Assembly: GCF_013122565.1 (NCBI RefSeq) | Contig: NZ_CP053258.1 | Source of the DNA: Escherichia coli | GTDB taxonomy: Bacteria > Pseudomonadota > Gammaproteobacteria > Enterobacterales > Enterobacteriaceae | Length of the DNA stretch: 64,000 bases | Reading direction: 5' to 3' (one strand) | Shown here: piece by piece, positions 1 through 63,057 of the stretch | Position numbering within the stretch: the first letter of the stretch is position 1 | Layout: each line of letters opens with the position of its first letter | The notes under the pieces: generated by a model | Database searches by the model: none | What the model saw: the letters and a program-made list of their open reading frames with translations, nothing else | What the model was told of the DNA's origin: nothing | Program-made: the position numbers and the translations under genes

Positions 1-930
1 CGTGTTGCTACTATCACCCTTAATCCGGCTTATGACCTTGTTGGTTTCTGCCCGGAAATTGAACGCGGCGAAGTGAACCTGGTGAAAACCACCGGTCTGC
101 ATGCGGCGGGTAAAGGCATCAACGTGGCCAAAGTATTAAAAGACCTGGGAATTGATGTCACCGTTGGCGGCTTCCTGGGTAAAGACAATCAGGATGGTTT
201 TCAGCAACTGTTCAGCGAGCTGGGCATTGCCAACCGTTTCCAGGTTGTACAGGGGCGCACCCGAATTAACGTTAAGCTGACGGAAAAAGACGGCGAAGTG
301 ACCGACTTCAACTTCTCGGGTTTTGAAGTCACTCCCGCCGACTGGGAACGCTTTGTGACTGATTCTCTGAGCTGGCTCGGTCAGTTCGATATGGTCTGTG
401 TCAGCGGAAGCTTACCGTCAGGCGTCAGCCCGGAAGCGTTCACCGACTGGATGACTCGCCTGCGTAGTCAGTGCCCTTGCATTATCTTTGATAGTAGCCG
501 TGAAGCGTTAGTAGCAGGTTTGAAAGCGGCACCGTGGTTGGTGAAACCTAACCGCCGCGAGCTGGAAATCTGGGCAGGCCGTAAACTGCCTGAAATGAAA
601 GATGTGATTGAAGCTGCGCATGCGCTGCGTGAACAAGGTATTGCGCATGTTGTTATTTCACTGGGTGCCGAAGGCGCGCTTTGGGTTAATGCCTCCGGCG
701 AATGGATCGCCAAACCACCGTCAGTCGATGTCGTAAGCACCGTTGGCGCAGGGGATTCTATGGTTGGTGGCCTGATTTATGGCTTGCTGATGCGTGAATC
801 CAGTGAACACACACTGCGTCTGGCGACAGCTGTTGCAGCCCTGGCGGTAAGTCAAAGCAATGTGGGTATTACCGATCGTCCGCAGTTGGCCGCAATGATG
901 GCGCGCGTCGACTTACAACCTTTTAACTGA
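1..930 (+). CDS. fruK: 1-phosphofructokinase FruK, 5' end outside window (first ~3 codons missing)
   Basis: Open frame from base 1 (RVATITLNPAYDLVGF...) through ORF-track 73..930; PfkB-family translation matches E. coli FruK from recall; stop TGA 928-930; fruA follows 16 nt downstream. Confidence 0.93.
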   Translation, partial: RVATITLNPAYDLVGFCPEIERGEVNLVKTTGLHAAGKGINVAKVLKDLGIDVTVGGFLGKDNQDGFQQLFSELGIANRFQVVQGRTRINVKLTEKDGEVTDFNFSGFEVTPADWERFVTDSLSWLGQFDMVCVSGSLPSGVSPEAFTDWMTRLRSQCPCIIFDSSREALVAGLKAAPWLVKPNRRELEIWAGRKLPEMKDVIEAAHALREQGIAHVVISLGAEGALWVNASGEWIAKPPSVDVVSTVGAGDSMVGGLIYGLLMRESSEHTLRLATAVAALAVSQSNVGITDRPQLAAMMARVDLQPFN

Positions 931-946
931 CAGCAGGAGAGGCATA

Positions 947-2638
947 ATGAAAACGCTGCTGATTATTGACGCTAATCTCGGTCAGGCACGCGCCTATATG
1001 GCGAAGACCCTGCTGGGCGCGGCGGCGCGAAAAGCAAAACTGGAAATCATCGACAATCCGAACGACGCTGAAATGGCGATTGTTCTCGGTGATTCCATCC
1101 CGAACGACAGCGCGCTGAACGGTAAAAATGTCTGGCTGGGCGATATTTCCCGGGCAGTTGCGCACCCTGAGCTGTTCCTGAGCGAAGCCAAAGGCCATGC
1201 GAAACCTTACACTGCGCCGGTCGCTGCGACAGCACCGGTTGCCGCCAGCGGTCCGAAACGCGTAGTTGCGGTGACTGCTTGCCCGACTGGCGTAGCACAC
1301 ACCTTTATGGCGGCTGAAGCCATTGAAACCGAAGCGAAAAAACGTGGCTGGTGGGTGAAAGTTGAAACCCGTGGTTCTGTTGGCGCGGGTAATGCAATCA
1401 CTCCAGAAGAAGTAGCCGCAGCGGATCTGGTGATTGTGGCGGCAGATATCGAAGTGGATCTGGCGAAATTTGCTGGTAAACCGATGTATCGTACCTCTAC
1501 CGGTCTGGCGCTGAAGAAAACCGCGCAGGAACTGGATAAAGCGGTTGCTGAAGCAACGCCGTATGAACCGGCGGGCAAAGCTCAAACGGCGACCTCTGAA
1601 GGTAAGAAAGAGAGTGCAGGCGCATACCGTCACTTGCTGACGGGCGTCTCTTACATGCTGCCGATGGTCGTTGCAGGTGGTCTGTGTATCGCGCTTTCTT
1701 TTGCTTTTGGTATCGAAGCGTTTAAAGAGCCGGGTACGTTGGCAGCGGCGCTGATGCAGATTGGTGGTGGTTCAGCCTTTGCGCTGATGGTGCCGGTACT
1801 GGCAGGTTACATTGCCTTCTCCATTGCCGATCGTCCGGGTCTCACGCCGGGTCTGATTGGCGGTATGCTGGCGGTCAGCACCGGTTCTGGCTTCATTGGC
1901 GGTATTATTGCGGGCTTCCTGGCTGGTTACATTGCGAAGTTAATCAGTACGCAACTGAAACTGCCACAGAGTATGGAGGCGCTGAAACCGATCCTGATCA
2001 TTCCGCTAATTTCCAGTCTGGTGGTCGGTCTGGCGATGATCTACCTGATCGGTAAACCGGTTGCTGGCATTCTCGAAGGGTTGACTCACTGGCTGCAGAC
2101 CATGGGGACTGCGAATGCGGTTCTGCTGGGGGCGATCCTCGGTGGCATGATGTGTACTGACATGGGCGGTCCGGTAAATAAAGCAGCGTACGCATTCGGT
2201 GTGGGTCTGCTGAGTACTCAAACCTATGGCCCGATGGCGGCGATTATGGCGGCAGGTATGGTGCCACCGCTGGCAATGGGTCTGGCAACAATGGTGGCGC
2301 GTCGCAAATTTGACAAAGCGCAGCAGGAAGGTGGCAAAGCCGCTCTGGTTCTTGGTCTGTGCTTTATTTCGGAAGGTGCAATTCCGTTTGCTGCTCGTGA
2401 TCCGATGCGTGTGCTGCCGTGCTGTATCGTGGGTGGGGCGCTGACTGGCGCAATCTCAATGGCGATTGGTGCGAAACTGATGGCACCGCACGGTGGTCTG
2501 TTTGTTCTACTGATCCCTGGCGCTATTACGCCTGTATTGGGTTACCTGGTAGCAATTATTGCCGGTACGCTGGTGGCGGGTTTGGCCTATGCCTTCCTGA
2601 AACGTCCGGAAGTGGACGCAGTAGCGAAAGCAGCGTAA
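947..2638 (+). CDS. fruA: PTS fructose-specific EIIB'BC component
   Basis: 563-aa ORF, ATG at 947 preceded by caggagagg RBS; translation matches FruA (two B domains plus membrane C domain). Confidence 0.95.
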   Translation: MKTLLIIDANLGQARAYMAKTLLGAAARKAKLEIIDNPNDAEMAIVLGDSIPNDSALNGKNVWLGDISRAVAHPELFLSEAKGHAKPYTAPVAATAPVAASGPKRVVAVTACPTGVAHTFMAAEAIETEAKKRGWWVKVETRGSVGAGNAITPEEVAAADLVIVAADIEVDLAKFAGKPMYRTSTGLALKKTAQELDKAVAEATPYEPAGKAQTATSEGKKESAGAYRHLLTGVSYMLPMVVAGGLCIALSFAFGIEAFKEPGTLAAALMQIGGGSAFALMVPVLAGYIAFSIADRPGLTPGLIGGMLAVSTGSGFIGGIIAGFLAGYIAKLISTQLKLPQSMEALKPILIIPLISSLVVGLAMIYLIGKPVAGILEGLTHWLQTMGTANAVLLGAILGGMMCTDMGGPVNKAAYAFGVGLLSTQTYGPMAAIMAAGMVPPLAMGLATMVARRKFDKAQQEGGKAALVLGLCFISEGAIPFAARDPMRVLPCCIVGGALTGAISMAIGAKLMAPHGGLFVLLIPGAITPVLGYLVAIIAGTLVAGLAYAFLKRPEVDAVAKAA

Positions 2639-5022: not shown

Positions 5023-6273
5023 ATGGATATAATGAGAAGTGTTGTGGGGATGGTGGTGTTACTGGCAATAGCATTTCTGTTGTCAGTGAATAAAAAGAGC
5101 ATCAGTTTGCGCACGGTTGGAGCCGCACTGCTGCTGCAAATCGCTATTGGTGGCATCATGCTCTACTTCCCACCGGGAAAATGGGCAGTAGAACAGGCGG
5201 CATTAGGCGTTCATAAAGTGATGTCTTACAGTGATGCCGGTAGCGCCTTTATTTTTGGTTCGCTGGTTGGGCCGAAAATGGATGTCCTGTTTGACGGTGC
5301 GGGTTTTATCTTCGCCTTTCGCGTACTTCCGGCGATTATCTTCGTCACTGCGCTCATTAGTCTGCTGTACTACATTGGCGTGATGGGGCTGCTGATTCGC
5401 ATCCTTGGCAGCATTTTCCAGAAAGCCCTCAACATCAGCAAAATCGAATCTTTTGTCGCAGTCACCACTATTTTCCTCGGGCAAAATGAGATCCCGGCGA
5501 TCGTTAAACCGTTTATCGATCGCATGAATCGCAACGAGTTGTTTACCGCAATTTGTAGCGGGATGGCGTCCATTGCTGGTTCGATGATGATTGGTTATGC
5601 CGGAATGGGCGTACCAATTGACTACCTGTTAGCGGCATCGCTGATGGCGATCCCCGGCGGTATTTTGTTTGCACGTATTCTTAGCCCGGCAACCGAGCCT
5701 TCGCAGGTCACATTTGAAAATCTGTCGTTCAGCGAAACGCCGCCAAAAAGCTTTATCGAAGCGGCGGCGAGCGGTGCGATGACCGGGCTGAAAATCGCCG
5801 CTGGTGTGGCGACGGTGGTCATGGCGTTTGTCGCAATTATTGCGCTGATCAACGGCATTATCGGCGGAATTGGCGGCTGGTTTGGTTTTGCCAATGCCTC
5901 TCTGGAAAGTATTTTTGGCTATGTGCTGGCACCGCTGGCGTGGATCATGGGTGTGGACTGGAGTGATGCCAATCTTGCGGGTAGCCTGATTGGGCAGAAA
6001 CTGGCGATTAACGAATTCGTCGCTTACCTGAGTTTCTCCCCATACCTGCAAACGGGCGGCACGCTGGAAGTGAAAACCATTGCGATTATCTCCTTTGCGC
6101 TTTGTGGTTTTGCTAACTTTGGTTCTATCGGTGTTGTCGTTGGCGCATTTTCGGCTATTTCGCCAAAACGTGCTCCGGAAATCGCTCAGCTTGGTTTACG
6201 GGCGCTGGCAGCAGCAACGCTTTCCAACCTGATGAGCGCGACTATTGCCGGGTTCTTTATTGGTTTAGCTTGA
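5023..6273 (+). CDS. psuT: NupC-family nucleoside transporter (putative pseudouridine transporter)
   Basis: 416-aa polytopic membrane ORF; matches YeiM/PsuT; close paralogue of nupX at 8210. Confidence 0.9.
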   Translation: MDIMRSVVGMVVLLAIAFLLSVNKKSISLRTVGAALLLQIAIGGIMLYFPPGKWAVEQAALGVHKVMSYSDAGSAFIFGSLVGPKMDVLFDGAGFIFAFRVLPAIIFVTALISLLYYIGVMGLLIRILGSIFQKALNISKIESFVAVTTIFLGQNEIPAIVKPFIDRMNRNELFTAICSGMASIAGSMMIGYAGMGVPIDYLLAASLMAIPGGILFARILSPATEPSQVTFENLSFSETPPKSFIEAAASGAMTGLKIAAGVATVVMAFVAIIALINGIIGGIGGWFGFANASLESIFGYVLAPLAWIMGVDWSDANLAGSLIGQKLAINEFVAYLSFSPYLQTGGTLEVKTIAIISFALCGFANFGSIGVVVGAFSAISPKRAPEIAQLGLRALAAATLSNLMSATIAGFFIGLA

Positions 6274-8209: not shown

Positions 8210-9460
8210 ATGGATGTCATGAGAAGTGTTCTGGGAATGGTGGTATTGCTGACGATTGCGTTTTTACTGTCAGTAAACAAGAAGAAGATCAGCCTGCGTA
8301 CCGTTGGCGCGGCGTTAGTGTTACAGGTCGTGATTGGCGGCATTATGCTTTGGTTACCGCCAGGGCGTTGGGTCGCTGAAAAAGTCGCTTTTGGCGTGCA
8401 TAAAGTGATGGCGTACAGCGACGCGGGTAGCGCATTTATCTTCGGTTCTCTGGTCGGACCGAAAATGGACACCTTATTTGATGGCGCAGGATTTATCTTT
8501 GGTTTCAGGGTGTTACCGGCAATTATCTTCGTCACCGCGCTGGTGAGTATTCTCTACTACATCGGTGTGATGGGGATCTTAATTCGCATTCTCGGCGGTA
8601 TCTTCCAGAAAGCATTAAATATCAGCAAGATCGAGTCATTCGTCGCGGTCACTACCATTTTCCTCGGGCAAAACGAAATTCCGGCGATCGTCAAACCCTT
8701 TATCGATCGTCTGAATCGCAATGAATTATTTACAGCGATTTGTAGTGGCATGGCCTCGATTGCTGGTTCGACAATGATTGGTTACGCCGCGCTGGGCGTG
8801 CCTGTGGAATATCTGCTGGCGGCATCATTAATGGCGATCCCTGGCGGGATCTTGTTTGCCCGCCTGTTAAGCCCGGCAACGGAATCTTCGCAGGTTTCCT
8901 TTAATAACCTCTCTTTCACCGAAACACCGCCAAAAAGCATTATTGAAGCCGCTGCGACAGGGGCAATGACCGGGCTGAAAATCGCCGCAGGTGTGGCGAC
9001 AGTAGTGATGGCATTTGTCGCCATCATTGCGTTAATTAACGGTATTATCGGCGGCGTTGGCGGCTGGTTTGATTTTGAACATGCCTCGCTGGAATCCATT
9101 TTAGGTTACCTGCTGGCCCTACTGGCGTGGGTGATGGGTGTTGACTGGAGTGATGCGAATCTTGCCGGGAGTTTGATTGGTCAGAAACTGGCAATAAATG
9201 AATTTGTCGCTTATCTCAATTTCTCACCCTATCTGCAAACAGCTGGCACTCTCGATGTTAAAACTGTGGCGATTATTTCCTTCGCGTTGTGCGGTTTCGC
9301 TAACTTTGGTTCTATCGGGGTAGTGGTGGGGGCGTTTTCTGCGGTTGCGCCACACCGCGCGCCGGAAATCGCCCAGCTTGGTTTACGTGCGCTGGCGGCG
9401 GCGACACTTTCTAACCTGATGAGCGCTACCATTGCCGGATTCTTTATTGGTTTAGCGTAG
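8210..9460 (+). CDS. nupX: NupC-family nucleoside permease
   Basis: 416-aa ORF, highly similar along its length to psuT; matches NupX/YeiJ. Confidence 0.9.
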   Translation: MDVMRSVLGMVVLLTIAFLLSVNKKKISLRTVGAALVLQVVIGGIMLWLPPGRWVAEKVAFGVHKVMAYSDAGSAFIFGSLVGPKMDTLFDGAGFIFGFRVLPAIIFVTALVSILYYIGVMGILIRILGGIFQKALNISKIESFVAVTTIFLGQNEIPAIVKPFIDRLNRNELFTAICSGMASIAGSTMIGYAALGVPVEYLLAASLMAIPGGILFARLLSPATESSQVSFNNLSFTETPPKSIIEAAATGAMTGLKIAAGVATVVMAFVAIIALINGIIGGVGGWFDFEHASLESILGYLLALLAWVMGVDWSDANLAGSLIGQKLAINEFVAYLNFSPYLQTAGTLDVKTVAIISFALCGFANFGSIGVVVGAFSAVAPHRAPEIAQLGLRALAAATLSNLMSATIAGFFIGLA

Positions 9461-15533: not shown

Positions 15534-17513
15534 ATGTTTAGGTTGAACCCTTTCGTACGGGTCGGGCTGTGTTTGTCCGCTATTTCTTGTGCATGGCCTG
15601 TGTTAGCGGTCGATGATGATGGCGAAACGATGGTTGTCACTGCATCTTCCGTTGAACAAAACCTTAAAGATGCACCTGCCAGTATCAGCGTCATTACCCA
15701 GGAAGACCTGCAGCGAAAACCGGTACAGAATCTGAAGGATGTCCTCAAAGAAGTGCCTGGCGTACAACTGACGAACGAAGGGGATAACCGTAAGGGCGTT
15801 AGTATTCGTGGTCTGGACAGCAGCTATACCCTGATTCTTGTCGACGGTAAACGCGTTAACTCCCGCAATGCCGTCTTCCGCCACAATGATTTCGATCTGA
15901 ACTGGATCCCGGTCGATTCCATCGAACGTATTGAAGTGGTTCGTGGCCCGATGTCGTCGCTGTACGGTTCCGATGCGCTCGGCGGTGTTGTGAATATCAT
16001 CACCAAAAAAATCGGTCAGAAATGGTCGGGTACCGTTACCGTCGATACCACCATTCAGGAACATCGCGATCGCGGTGATACCTATAACGGTCAGTTCTTT
16101 GCCAGCGGACCATTAATTGACGGTGTGCTGGGAATGAAAGCTTACGGCAGCCTGGCAAAACGTGAAAAGGATGATCCGCAAAACTCAACGACCACCGATA
16201 CTGGAGAAACGCCGCGTATTGAAGGATTCTCCAGCCGCGACGGCAATGTCGAATTTGCCTGGACACCGAATCAAAATCACGATTTTACTGCCGGATACGG
16301 TTTCGACCGTCAGGATCGTGATTCCGACTCGCTGGACAAAAACCGCCTGGAACGCCAGAACTACTCCGTCAGCCATAATGGGCGTTGGGATTACGGCACC
16401 AGCGAACTGAAATACTACGGTGAGAAAGTCGAGAACAAAAACCCTGGCAACAGCAGCCCGATAACTTCCGAAAGCAATACGGTCGACGGCAAATACACGT
16501 TGCCGCTGACGGCGATTAATCAGTTTCTCACAGTTGGCGGTGAATGGCGTCACGACAAACTTAGCGATGCGGTGAACCTGACCGGGGGAACCAGCTCCAA
16601 AACGTCTGCCAGCCAGTACGCGCTGTTTGTGGAAGATGAATGGCGGATCTTCGAGCCGCTGGCGCTGACGACCGGCGTACGTATGGACGATCATGAAACC
16701 TACGGTGAACACTGGAGTCCGCGTGCCTACCTGGTTTATAACGCCACCGACACCGTAACGGTGAAAGGGGGCTGGGCGACGGCATTTAAAGCGCCTTCTC
16801 TGTTGCAACTTAGCCCTGACTGGACGAGCAATTCCTGCCGTGGCGCATGTAAGATTGTGGGTAGCCCGGATCTGAAACCAGAAACCAGCGAAAGTTGGGA
16901 GCTGGGGCTTTACTATATGGGTGAAGAAGGCTGGCTGGAAGGGGTTGAATCCAGCGTTACCGTTTTCCGTAACGATGTGAAAGATCGCATCAGCATCAGC
17001 CGTACGTCTGACGTCAATGCTGCACCGGGCTACCAAAACTTTGTCGGTTTTACAGCGGGCGGTGTGCCGGTATTCAGCTACTACAACGTTAACAAAGCAC
17101 GTATTCAGGGCGTGGAAACCGAACTGAAAATTCCGTTCAACGATGAATGGAAACTGTCACTCAACTACACCTACAACGATGGTCGTGATGTCAGCAACGG
17201 CGAAAATAAACCGCTATCCGATCTGCCGTTCCATACTGCTAACGGTACGCTGGACTGGAAACCGCTGGCGCTGGAAGACTGGTCATTCTATGTTTCTGGT
17301 CACTATACCGGGCAGAAACGAGCCGACAGCGCGACGGCTAAAACACCGGGCGGTTATACCATCTGGAATACCGGCGCGGCCTGGCAGGTGACCAAAGATG
17401 TCAAACTGCGCGCAGGCGTGCTGAACCTTGGCGACAAGGATCTCAGTCGTGACGACTACAGCTATAACGAAGACGGACGTCGTTACTTTATGGCAGTGGA
17501 TTATCGCTTCTGA
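15534..17513 (+). CDS. cirA: TonB-dependent catecholate siderophore / colicin I receptor
   Basis: 659-aa ORF with signal peptide, TonB box (ETMVVTAS) and C-terminal ...AVDYRF; matches CirA. Confidence 0.95.
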
Positions 17514-35956: not shown

Positions 35957-36907
35957 ATGCGTGTGTTACTGGCACCGATGGAGGGAGTGCTTGACTCTCT
36001 GGTGCGTGAATTGCTGACCGAAGTTAACGACTACGATCTGTGCATCACCGAGTTCGTCCGCGTGGTGGATCAACTGCTGCCGGTAAAAGTTTTTCATCGC
36101 ATTTGCCCTGAGCTACAAAACGCCAGCCGGACACCATCCGGTACGCTGGTGCGCGTGCAGTTGTTGGGTCAGTTCCCACAATGGCTGGCAGAGAACGCCT
36201 CCCGTGCGGTGGAATTAGGTTCCTGGGGCGTGGATCTCAATTGCGGCTGCCCGTCGAAAACGGTTAACGGTAGCGGCGGCGGCGCGACGTTACTCAAAGA
36301 TCCTGAACTCATCTACCAGGGTGCAAAAGCGATGCGTGAAGCTGTACCGGCGCATTTGCCCGTCAGCGTGAAAGTGCGTCTGGGCTGGGACAGCGGTGAG
36401 AAGAAATTTGAAATCGCCGATGCGGTTCAACAGGCTGGCGCTACGGAGCTGGTGGTGCATGGGCGGACGAAAGAGCAGGGTTACCGCGCGGAGCATATTG
36501 ACTGGCAGGCGATTGGTGAGATTCGCCAGCGGCTGAATATTCCGGTGATTGCCAACGGTGAAATCTGGGACTGGCAGAGCGCGCAACAATGCATGGCGAT
36601 CAGCGGCTGCGACGCAGTGATGATTGGTCGCGGGGCGCTCAATATTCCCAACCTGAGCCGGGTAGTAAAATATAACGAACCGCGAATGCCGTGGCCGGAG
36701 GTGGTTGCTTTGCTGCAAAAATATACCCGTCTGGAAAAGCAGGGCGATACCGGGTTATATCACGTAGCGCGGATTAAACAGTGGTTGAGTTATTTGCGTA
36801 AAGAATACGCTGAAGCAACAGAATTATTTCAGCATGTTCGGGTGTTGAATAATTCCCCTGATATTGCAAGGGCTATTCAGGCAATTGATATCGATAAGCT
36901 GCGATAA
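35957..36907 (+). CDS. dusC: tRNA-dihydrouridine(16) synthase
   Basis: ORF-track starts at a TTG (35891); ATG at 35957 gives [19 protein letters not shown]... matching DusC. Confidence 0.9.
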
Positions 36908-37294
36908 TAGTGGAATCGCAGCTTATCAGAGACAATGAATCGCTTATTCAGCTTCATCATCTTGTTGCGCTCCTTTCATGAACTAAGCCATATATTGCCA
37001 CTGGCGCAAGGAGCGCGCAGGGGGAGGACAATCGCCTCCTCCCCCTGCACCCCCGGGCTCTGGCGAACAAAATCGCCGCTGCGCGGTACCTTCAGCTTAT
37101 CCCCTTCGGCTACCGGGTCGGGCGCGAGGTAACGTCCTTGTAAGACGCGCCCTCAGCCCACATCCATGTGGGCTGTCCCGGCCTTCGGGGAACGCTTCAG
37201 CGATTTTGACGCCACCAACACCGGAGCTGTTTGCAAATCAAGTACACAAAATATCTAGTTCCTGACCTGACAACTTATATGCCATATCTGATTT

Positions 37295-37378
37295 TTAAAA
37301 TATCATCTTAAATACGCCAGTCACCACCAGTAGCCCAATCAGGAAAATAATCAATACAGCCCAGAGTATAATTTTCAT
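37295..37378 (-). CDS. yohP: Small membrane protein YohP (27 aa)
   Basis: Hand translation of the minus strand: MKIILWAVLIIFLIGLLVVTGVFKMIF*, a single hydrophobic helix; below the ORF-track size cut-off; matches YohP from recall. Confidence 0.75.
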   Translation of the reverse strand: MKIILWAVLIIFLIGLLVVTGVFKMIF

Positions 37379-37601
37379 TGGCGTTCCTTTATTTGTGAGT
37401 GCTGAATAAGTATAGGAAAAAACGAAGCCCTTTGCCGTTATCCATAAACGATTAAGATAAATCGGAAGATATCATTCACTTAGTGTATATTTTTCTGGAT
37501 ATGTCGTTTTATTGCTACTGATGTATTGCCACGCGAAACTAAAAAATATATCGCAACACACGGTAATCTCCCCGCACCTTTTCTTACCTGATTATTCCCC
37601 C

Positions 37602-39038
37602 ATGAATCGTGATTCCTTTTATCCAGCCATCGCCTGTTTTCCGCTGTTACTGATGCTGGCCGGATGTGCGCCTATGCATGAAACCCGCCAGGCGTTAAGC
37701 CAGCAAACGCCCGCTGCACAAGTTGACACCGCATTACCCACGGCGCTGAAAAATGGTTGGCCAGACAGCCAATGGTGGCTGGAGTATCACGATAATCAAC
37801 TCACTTCATTAATTAACAATGCACTACAGAACGCACCGGATATGCAGGTGGCTGAACAGCGCATTCAGCTAGCTGAAGCCCAGGCGAAGGCAGTTGCTAC
37901 TCAGGATGGTCCGCAGATCGACTTTTCTGCGGATATGGAGCGGCAAAAAATGTCGGCAGAAGGGCTAATGGGGCCGTTTGCTCTGAACGATCCGGCCGCA
38001 GGTACGACCGGTCCGTGGTACACCAACGGAACTTTTGGCTTAACGGCGGGCTGGCATCTCGATATCTGGGGAAAGAATCGGGCGGAGGTTACTGCCCGCC
38101 TGGGTACGGTTAAAGCACGGGCGGCGGAACGCGAGCAAACCCGCCAATTGCTGGCTGGCAGCGTAGCCCGCCTGTACTGGGAGTGGCAAACCCAGGCGGC
38201 GTTAAACACGGTCTTGCAGCAAATAGAAAAAGAGCAGAACACCATTATCGCGACCGATCGCCAGCTATATCAGAACGGGATTACTTCTTCAGTTGAAGGT
38301 GTGGAAACCGATATTAATGCCAGCAAAACCCGGCAGCAGCTCAACGATGTCGCGGGGAAAATGAAAATTATTGAGGCACGGTTAAGCGCACTTACAAATC
38401 ACCAGACAAAGTCATTGAAGCTTAAACCGGTCGCGTTGCCGAAAGTGGCAAGCCAGCTTCCTGATGAACTGGGGTACTCCTTACTGGCCCGGCGGGCAGA
38501 TTTGCAGGCGGCGCACTGGTACGTTGAGTCATCGTTAAGCACCATTGATGCGGCGAAAGCGGCATTTTATCCTGACATCAACCTGATGGCCTTCCTGCAA
38601 CAGGATGCGTTGCACTTAAGCGATCTGTTCCGTCATTCCGCGCAGCAAATGGGCGTTACGGCAGGCCTGACGCTACCCATTTTCGATAGTGGTCGTCTTA
38701 ACGCAAACCTCGATATCGCAAAAGCCGAAAGCAACTTGTCTATCGCCAGCTACAACAAAGCAGTGGTTGAAGCGGTGAATGACGTGGCGCGGGCAGCCAG
38801 TCAGGTTCAGACACTGGCGGAGAAAAACCAGCATCAGGCGCAAATTGAGCGCGATGCCTTGCGTGTGGTAGGTCTTGCGCAGGCGCGCTTTAACGCGGGC
38901 ATCATTGCTGGTTCCCGTGTCAGCGAAGCCAGAATCCCGGCGCTGCGTGAGCGGGCCAATGGCCTGTTATTGCAAGGGCAGTGGCTGGATGCCTCCATTC
39001 AACTCACTGGTGCGTTGGGCGGGGGTTACAAACGCTGA
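37602..39038 (+). CDS. mdtQ: Outer-membrane efflux lipoprotein (NodT/OprM family), apparently intact
   Basis: ORF-track 37512..39038 is one continuous frame; ATG at 37602 gives MNRDSFYPAIACFPLLLMLAGC (lipobox LAGC); 478 aa. Confidence 0.8.
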   Translation: MNRDSFYPAIACFPLLLMLAGCAPMHETRQALSQQTPAAQVDTALPTALKNGWPDSQWWLEYHDNQLTSLINNALQNAPDMQVAEQRIQLAEAQAKAVATQDGPQIDFSADMERQKMSAEGLMGPFALNDPAAGTTGPWYTNGTFGLTAGWHLDIWGKNRAEVTARLGTVKARAAEREQTRQLLAGSVARLYWEWQTQAALNTVLQQIEKEQNTIIATDRQLYQNGITSSVEGVETDINASKTRQQLNDVAGKMKIIEARLSALTNHQTKSLKLKPVALPKVASQLPDELGYSLLARRADLQAAHWYVESSLSTIDAAKAAFYPDINLMAFLQQDALHLSDLFRHSAQQMGVTAGLTLPIFDSGRLNANLDIAKAESNLSIASYNKAVVEAVNDVARAASQVQTLAEKNQHQAQIERDALRVVGLAQARFNAGIIAGSRVSEARIPALRERANGLLLQGQWLDASIQLTGALGGGYKR

Positions 39039-50046: not shown

Positions 50047-50778
50047 ATGAAGATGTTGCGCGATCCGCTGTTCTGGCTCATTGCTCTGTTTGTGGCACTG
50101 ATTTTCTGGCTGCCTTACAGCCAGCCGCTGTTTGCTGCCTTGTTCCCACAACTGCCACGACCCGTTTATCAGCAAGAAAGTTTTGCAGCTCTGGCACTGG
50201 CTCATTTCTGGCTGGTGGGAATTTCGAGTTTGTTTGCGGTGATCATTGGTACTGGTGCCGGAATTGCAGTCACTCGCCCGTGGGGCGCGGAATTTCGCCC
50301 ACTGGTGGAAACTATTGCCGCCGTTGGGCAGACTTTTCCGCCTGTCGCAGTGCTGGCGATTGCTGTTCCGGTGATCGGCTTTGGTCTGCAACCAGCGATT
50401 ATCGCCTTGATCCTGTACGGCGTGCTGCCCGTCCTGCAGGCGACACTTGCCGGGCTGGGAGCGATTGATGCCAGCGTGACAGAAGTTGCGAAGGGTATGG
50501 GAATGAGTCGTGGTCAGCGACTGCGTAAGGTCGAGCTACCGCTGGCGGCTCCGGTGATTCTGGCGGGCGTGCGAACTTCGGTGATTATCAACATTGGTAC
50601 GGCGACAATCGCCTCAACGGTAGGGGCCAGCACGCTGGGTACGCCCATCATCATCGGGCTTAGCGGATTTAATACCGCGTATGTGATCCAGGGGGCGTTA
50701 CTGGTGGCACTGGCGGCGATCATCGCAGACCGCCTGTTTGAAAGGCTGGTGCAGGCGCTTAGCCAGCACGCAAAATAA
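50047..50778 (+). CDS. yehW: Glycine betaine ABC transporter permease
   Basis: 243-aa membrane ORF matching YehW. Confidence 0.92.
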
Positions 50779-50866
50779 AGGTATAACCTGCGAGCATGAC
50801 GCCACCAATTCCGCCTAACGCCATAAACAGGAACAGGGCGATGACCCCAATTTTAGCTATGCGCAT
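50759..50866 (-). CDS. yohO: Small membrane protein YohO (35 aa)
   Basis: Hand translation of the minus strand: [35 protein letters not shown], preceded by aaggag SD; 3' end overlaps the yehW stop region convergently; absent from the ORF track. Confidence 0.7.
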
Positions 50867-62358: not shown

Positions 62359-62448
62359 ATGGACACGCTGACACAAAAGTTAACCGTGCTCATTGCCGTA
62401 CTGGAGTTATTAGTGGCTCTGTTACGGTTGATTGATTTGTTGAAGTAA
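62359..62448 (+). CDS. zorO: Type I toxin ZorO (29-aa hydrophobic peptide)
   Basis: Hand translation MDTLTQKLTVLIAVLELLVALLRLIDLLK*; strong SD aaggag 5 nt upstream; about 174-nt 5' UTR from the predicted TSS; matches my recollection of ZorO from E. coli O157:H7. Confidence 0.85.
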   Translation: MDTLTQKLTVLIAVLELLVALLRLIDLLK

Positions 62449-62967: not shown

Positions 62968-63057
62968 ATGGACACGCTGACAAAAAAGTTAACCGTGCTC
63001 ATTGCCGTACTGGAGTTATTAGTGGCTCTGTTACGGTTGATTGATTTGTTGAAGTAA
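62968..63057 (+). CDS. zorP: Type I toxin ZorP (29 aa; one substitution, Q6K, relative to the upstream copy)
   Basis: Hand translation MDTLTKKLTVLIAVLELLVALLRLIDLLK*; identical SD and context to zorO. Confidence 0.85.
   Translation: MDTLTKKLTVLIAVLELLVALLRLIDLLK

Follow-up and report, generated by a model that had tools for sequence, protein, structure and literature searches.

Positions 37295-37378 on the minus strand of the window (the whole 64,000-nucleotide stretch of Escherichia coli DNA analyzed here) are the gene yohP. The gene is already known: it has been annotated for years, its product is a well-studied model small membrane protein, and there is nothing new in the identification, which nothing contradicts. 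What kind of gene is it? In all likelihood, yohP is a free-standing mini-gene for a single-helix inner-membrane protein that functions as published YohP does. A sigma-S-type −10 box, a 5' UTR of ~24 nt, a Shine-Dalgarno site, and 27 codons would follow one another in that order. YohP in the window strain would behave as it does in K-12, the strain of the published YohP experiments, where the 3' flank differs from that in the window strain, and its physiological role would be “metabolic silencing” on entry into stationary phase.

What are the implications of this identification? First, a genuine gene for a 27-aa protein is recognizable from raw sequence, and the unambiguous recovery of its identity serves as a positive control. 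Second, the points that may merit further work lie outside yohP: an apparently lost terminator, and an unannotated, multi-copy element that occurs in two orientations in Escherichia.

Identity and genomic setting of the reading frame

Direct translation of the minus strand at 37295-37378 gives exactly MKIILWAVLIIFLIGLLVVTGVFKMIF, the peptide proposed in the first-pass annotation, followed by a stop. The coding sequence consists of 27 codons and a TAA stop, with the start ATG at 37378-37376 and the TAA at 37297-37295. As had been proposed, the 27-aa peptide has a single transmembrane helix (mean Kyte-Doolittle hydropathy 2.47). The helix is flanked by K2 and K24, and G15 and G21 share one helix face.

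The first-pass annotation had called the peptide “YohP-like”, a label that was to stand or fall with homology to YohP and with ribosome occupancy. This was an understatement. The peptide is YohP itself, 100% identical to K-12 b4679. It scores 67.3 bits on the NCBIfam equivalog model NF011345 (“small membrane protein YohP”; cut-off 58), an equivalog-level match that covers residues 1-27 of 27, and it matches Pfam PF25659 end to end (50.6 bits; cut-off 27). A megablast search with the surrounding 801 bases finds RefSeq yohP (WP_000691708.1) annotated at the matching locus, between dusC and mdtQ. That an ORF track had missed the frame, as the first-pass annotation stated, is plausible, since 27 aa falls under the usual length limits for ORF listing (60 aa by default in one such tool).

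The genomic setting also agrees with the earlier description of an AT-rich region between a GC-rich block and mdtQ: the GC content is 0.30-0.40 across 37200-37600, versus 0.65-0.67 across 37000-37200. The gene dusC (35957-36907, plus strand) is convergent with yohP, and mdtQ (37602-39038, plus strand) is divergent from it across a 223-bp AT-rich intergenic region; both neighbors were placed from the ORF list, RefSeq annotation (that of the matching locus for dusC), and tblastn, with synteny for dusC. The locus order in K-12 is likewise dusC-yohP-mdtQ. The 27-aa sequence and the coding DNA of yohP are the same in K-12, and two positions distinguish K-12 from the window in the ~220 bp of intergenic DNA upstream, both >130 nt 5' of the ATG. 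K-12 differs only around the gene: the 3' flank diverges, a structured repeat is inverted and 88% identical, and mdtQ, which is an intact 478-codon frame in the window, is annotated as a pseudogene.

Conservation of YohP across six genera

Short ORFs are plentiful in this DNA, with 125 of at least 20 aa in the surrounding 7 kb and 698 of 20-50 aa in the window, and this is the argument for regarding the frame as a chance ORF in AT-rich intergenic DNA that yields no product. The YohP ORF is an outlier among them, however: its hydropathy is the highest of the 698 (Kyte-Doolittle 2.47; z = 4.0), and its ATG start codon is preceded by a Shine-Dalgarno site. It also passes the curated models NF011345 and PF25659.

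Conservation within the species is close to complete. A 201-bp yohP core is present as a single copy in 5,421 of 5,426 complete E. coli genomes, and is at least 99% identical in 4,973 of the E. coli genomes carrying it. To find orthologues in other genera, a collection of species-representative genomes was scanned for a degenerate DNA pattern in which codons 1-7 and 9-10 are fixed, such that N-terminal variants of yohP are outside its reach; the yohP genes of Salmonella and Klebsiella were not returned by this pattern scan with fixed N-terminal codons. There were 28 matches, 26 of which are ORFs of exactly 27 codons. These 26 orthologues come from six genera: Escherichia, Citrobacter, Enterobacter, Buttiauxella, Cedecea, and Atlantibacter. 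The gene adjoins dusC in Escherichia, Citrobacter, and Atlantibacter. The other two matches (L006 and L024), from unrelated phyla, diverge immediately past the pattern and serve as a built-in control for chance matches.

How has the peptide changed between genera? In codons 11-27, each non-Escherichia orthologue differs from the window by 7-13 synonymous changes and 0-1 non-synonymous changes. Across the 26 orthologues there are 20 variable sites in these codons (15 third-position, 4 first-position, and 1 second-position). The amino-acid variants amount to L13I, M25A, and V8I, the last in the free codon of the pattern. Residues G15, G21, and K24, in the part that the search left unconstrained, are constant in 26/26 orthologues, and the motif IGLLVVTGV found in window YohP is likewise unchanged in all of them. 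Because the substitutions are nearly all synonymous in codons free of the pattern, the comparison indicates that the YohP peptide is under strong purifying selection.

The exact 27-codon length and the nearly all-synonymous substitutions across six genera are not what a chance ORF would leave behind. Moreover, the protein has been detected from its native locus in published work, by Western blotting of a chromosomal SPA-tagged version in E. coli (PMC12719787) and by 3xFLAG-tagging in Salmonella (PMC5437024). The conservation pattern and the published protein detection together refute the chance-ORF reading, which has practically no probability of being correct.

Expression signals and the transcript

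Upstream of yohP, two islands of sequence are conserved. The first is the Shine-Dalgarno site, read from the sequence as AAGGA at 37385-37389 (minus strand), 6 nt 5' of the ATG; an AGGA/GGAG-type motif is equally spaced in 26/26 orthologues despite the diverging 5' UTR. The second is the −10 box CCTATACT at 37409-37416 (minus strand), in which the hexamer TATACT follows a C at −13. This box is invariant in the 26 orthologues and lies 30-33 nt 5' of the ATG in all of them. The rest of the upstream DNA cannot be aligned between genera. A TATACT hexamer with a C at −13 and a poor −35 is the form of −10 element preferred by sigma-S (RpoS). A scan with the sigma-70 consensus did not call the yohP promoter, in line with its weak −35; the promoter is recognizable solely from its invariance between genera and from the established form of sigma-S −10 elements. 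From the position of the box, transcription would start at ~37403/37402, giving a 5' UTR of ~24 nt. Thus, yohP is predicted to have its own sigma-S-type promoter and ribosome-binding site, and to be a stand-alone unit.

In Buttiauxella, Cedecea, and Enterobacter-like orthologues (L003-L029), a conserved hairpin, CGGGGAGGCAACTCCCCCG, occurs just 5' of the −10 box, ~45-70 nt upstream of yohP, and is absent from Escherichia. This hairpin may terminate the upstream gene or have a regulatory function.

Published work on expression is consistent with a sigma-S promoter. Canonical sigma-S −10 features have been described for a class of genes that includes Salmonella yohP (PMC5437024). The Salmonella gene, STnc1330/yohP, is orthologous, RpoS-dependent, and specific to stationary phase, with a sigma-S-type −10 region (PMC5437024); the likeness is drawn from the published description rather than from sequence alignment, and a CTATACT box, as in sigma-S-type −10 regions, occurs upstream of window yohP. 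FLAG-tagged YohP in Salmonella reaches high levels in stationary phase and is barely detectable in an rpoS deletion mutant, and RpoS dependence has been demonstrated in Salmonella only (PMC5437024). In E. coli, YohP-SPA expressed from the native chromosomal promoter climbs from early to late stationary phase, and it also accumulates in minimal medium and under oxygen limitation, while the earlier-reported induction by SDS/EDTA and H2O2 was not reproduced (PMC12719787).

The Salmonella orthologue was first catalogued as a small RNA, STnc1330, presumed non-coding, abundant in stationary phase, and dependent on sigma-S (PMC5437024). Could the transcript have a dual function, acting by base-pairing as well as encoding YohP? 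Such a role has been raised for other coding small RNAs in the same Salmonella paper (PMC5437024), but the sequence comparison does not favor it here. Between genera, the UTRs on both sides and the third positions of codons vary freely, so no conserved seed is visible beyond the coding constraint. In addition, structure in the coding sequence is not above background, and there is no Rfam match at yohP. A second, base-pairing function is therefore given very little credence.

The coding sequence has been assigned another role at the RNA level. The yohP mRNA reaches the membrane independently of translation, and its targeting signal lies within the coding sequence, in the form of uracil content and two predicted stem-loops (PMC7549839, PMC10066597). 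The coding sequence in the window has a U content of 41%, and its predicted fold contains both published stem-loops, at nt 10-25 and 30-78. The stem-loops are no more stable than those of shuffled sequence (z = +0.94), and so they carry no evidential weight.

How does YohP act?

K-12 YohP is found in the carbonate-resistant membrane fraction and is an integral inner-membrane protein with a mainly N-out/C-in topology (PMC7549839). It forms SDS-resistant dimers that require G15 (PMC7549839) and that are lost in a K24E mutant (PMC12542507). The protein is recognized post-translationally by SRP/FtsY and inserted via SecYEG or YidC (PMC7549839); an alternative route proceeds without SRP, from membrane-bound mRNA (PMC7549839, PMC10066597). 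Production of YohP causes a sub-lethal drop in membrane potential (proton motive force) and induces PspA/PspC; cardiolipin and (p)ppGpp rise, the nucleoid condenses, and protein synthesis falls (PMC12719787, PMC12542507). Deletion of yohP makes cells more sensitive to ciprofloxacin and oxidative stress (PMC12719787, PMC12542507), with no growth phenotype and only minor effects on the proteome (PMC12719787). The authors of that work read these effects as “metabolic silencing” at the entry into stationary phase; most of the phenotypes were seen when a plasmid drove YohP expression prematurely, in exponential phase, and native effects may differ (PMC12719787).

These properties invite comparison with type I toxins. 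Like YohP, TisB and ZorO (~29 aa) consist of a single helix in the inner membrane, decrease the proton motive force, and favor dormancy-like states. YohP might accordingly be the toxin of a type I toxin-antitoxin pair, held in check by an unrecognized antisense or trans-acting small RNA, as in TisB/IstR-1 and ZorO/OrzO. It is small, hydrophobic, and C-in, it depolarizes the membrane and slows growth, and the comparison with TisB-type toxins is drawn by the YohP authors themselves (PMC12719787). There are also two conceivable sources of antisense RNA: the structured element of K-12-type strains faces yohP, such that any outgoing transcript would be antisense to the gene, and a promoter-like site on the plus strand at 37279-37306 would drive antisense transcription of the coding sequence. 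However, that site is the lone antisense match, at the level expected by chance (1 found, 1.2 expected), and it is not conserved, with its −35 in the strain-variable flank. No antitoxin is known for YohP, no Rfam small RNA overlaps the locus, and neither the Rfam scan nor the promoter scan revealed a complementary small RNA antitoxin there. Type I toxins have long structured leaders, whereas the yohP 5' UTR is ~24 nt, in keeping with the 30-33 nt between the −10 box and the ATG. The effect of YohP is sub-lethal, and its native stationary-phase levels are high (PMC12719787). Furthermore, in other genera yohP is a compact promoter-ORF-terminator unit, leaving no room for an antitoxin partner. 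YohP also lacks sequence similarity to TisB and ZorO, and its control is by sigma-S rather than by the SOS response. Membership in a type I toxin-antitoxin pair thus fails and is very improbable, even though YohP works in a like manner.

A second alternative is that YohP physiologically serves to bind and modulate a single larger membrane protein, as in the pairs AcrZ-AcrB, MgrB-PhoQ, and MgtS-MgtA, with depolarization being a side effect of overexpression. This is the most common mechanism among characterized small membrane proteins, and deletion of yohP alters a few specific proteins, TnaA and YgeY (PMC12719787). The constraint on the whole helix, with V8I, L13I, and M25A the only variants across six genera, likewise exceeds what generic hydrophobicity would need. 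Set against this, no partner has been reported for YohP, and the YohP levels reached from the plasmid matched native stationary-phase levels (PMC12719787). The unrelated small membrane protein YncL causes the same nucleoid condensation (PMC12542507), which points to a generic membrane effect. YncL (31 aa) resembles YohP in being a small, sigma-S-linked membrane protein (PMC5437024) whose effect on the nucleoid depends on depolarization (PMC12542507), but its sequence and locus are unrelated, and in E. coli it is induced by heat shock (PMC12719787). Action through one specific partner is therefore unlikely, although the near-total invariance of the helix speaks for it.

A lost terminator on the 3' side of yohP

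Homology between alleles ends 2 nt past the yohP stop codon (in many genomes, the break falls at query position 188). In the window, the AT-rich 3' flank (37219-37294, minus strand) is allele-specific, and homology to K-12-type genomes stops at 37293. No intrinsic terminator or terminator-like site was found in 36850-37700.

Other genera have a different arrangement. For example, Buttiauxella orthologues have a terminator-like hairpin and T-run 5-8 nt past the yohP stop (5036-5063 in L009; 10842-10863 in L010). The L009 hairpin also has a flanking A-run and may work in both directions. Inspection by eye finds a similar hairpin after yohP in most other non-Escherichia orthologues. The gap between yohP and dusC is ~65 nt in Citrobacter and Atlantibacter, versus about 390-470 nt in Escherichia, and the extra Escherichia DNA is the GC-rich block. 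The comparison indicates that the terminator trailing yohP in Buttiauxella, and in the majority of the other orthologues from outside Escherichia, was lost in Escherichia. With no terminator there, the yohP transcript of Escherichia would be without a defined 3' end.

A dispersed structured element next to yohP

The GC-rich block is a structured element (36947-37218; sense, minus strand) that neighbors yohP and is not part of the gene. It has a core of ~265-272 bp and starts 77 nt past the yohP stop in the window. The element occurs at 17,461 places in 5,425 E. coli genomes, with a median of 3 per genome, and RefSeq has no annotation for it. One further copy is located between lysO and aqpZ. 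A literature search for its signature sequence gave no matches.

What is the element? Full-length matches to the Rfam model RF01731 (TwoAYGGAY) score 26.2 bits for the window copy, 30.9 for the K-12 copy, and 30.6 for the lysO-aqpZ copy; none of the three copies scored reaches the gathering score of 43 bits, and no Rfam match at or around the yohP locus reaches its threshold. The loop of the first hairpin, ACAUGGAUGU, fits AYGGAY, the second loop, A(A/G)GGA(C/U), has a purine at position 2, and an outer stem is predicted. In an alignment of nine copies, the consensus fold has 80 pairs, almost none of which are broken; 3 of the 80 are kept through compensatory double changes, all in one lineage. 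A 464-nt model transcript that begins at the predicted yohP start and extends to the end of the element has a fold with z = −5.0. The element is best described, on its sequence and predicted fold, as a dispersed, TwoAYGGAY-like structured element.

At its end, the element carries a conserved Shine-Dalgarno-like stretch, AAAGGAGCGCAAC, followed by an ATG. In the window, this end (CATGAAAGGAGCGCAACAAGATGATGAA, 36877-36990, minus strand) combines a strong Shine-Dalgarno sequence with an ATG and reads outward into the flank. The ORF that follows is 27, 9, and 3 codons long in three copies. The window version, a 27-aa ORF at 36877-36960 (minus strand), is antisense to the 3' end of dusC. With no family match and no conservation between copies, this ORF was rejected as a gene.

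Orientation of the element and possible effects on yohP

The element at the yohP-dusC site is inverted relative to its flanks between the window strain (36947-37294) and K-12 (5067-5438 of the K-12 locus, L002). The two versions are 88% identical, versus ~99% in the flanks. Among 5,426 E. coli genomes, the element is oriented as in the window in 1,999 (37%) and as in K-12 in 3,316 (61%), and both orientations are also seen in other Escherichia species. Different lineages have the element fixed in one or the other of these opposite orientations. In E. coli EA7 (NZ_CP069709.1, 1614058-1615555), a copy of IS1B interrupts a yohP-dusC interval of the K-12 type.

The orientation could matter for the yohP transcript. 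In window-type strains the element is co-oriented with yohP, and, with no intervening terminator, it would be transcribed as a structured 3' UTR; a 3' UTR is thus a possible role for the window-strain copy. In the K-12-type inversion, the outward Shine-Dalgarno-ATG end instead points antisense into yohP. It is conceivable, but a long shot, that the element acts as a strain-variable regulator of yohP, with the two alleles setting different levels of YohP. If it did, strains might differ by allele in their depth of stationary-phase “metabolic silencing” or in antibiotic tolerance, and published K-12 results on YohP would not transfer to window-type strains.

Other features in the window and at the K-12 locus

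The window contains a second known small membrane protein gene, yohO, at 50759-50866 (minus strand). It encodes 35 aa, scores 80.1 bits on NF010225 (cut-off 57), and ranks third in hydrophobicity among the short ORFs of the window.

Two 29-aa ORFs, at 62359-62448 and 62968-63057 (both plus strand), resemble a type I toxin pair that arose by duplication. The peptide of the first has exactly the sequence published for the ZorO toxin (PMC6669753), and that of the second differs from ZorO by Q6K, which suggests that the second ORF is zorP in the zorO-orzO/zorP-orzP locus, a duplicated locus known from published work. In matching RefSeq genomes, the ZorO/ZorP region is labeled “hypothetical protein” or “yehK”, or has no label.

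Structured RNA motifs were also seen at the K-12 locus (L002). Sub-threshold matches to naRNA4 (REP-like) follow yohD (2389-2466, plus strand) and cdd (8730-8767, minus strand), and the Peptidase-S11 RNA motif RF03039 matches above threshold, with 72.8 bits, at 876-956 (minus strand), upstream of pbpG.
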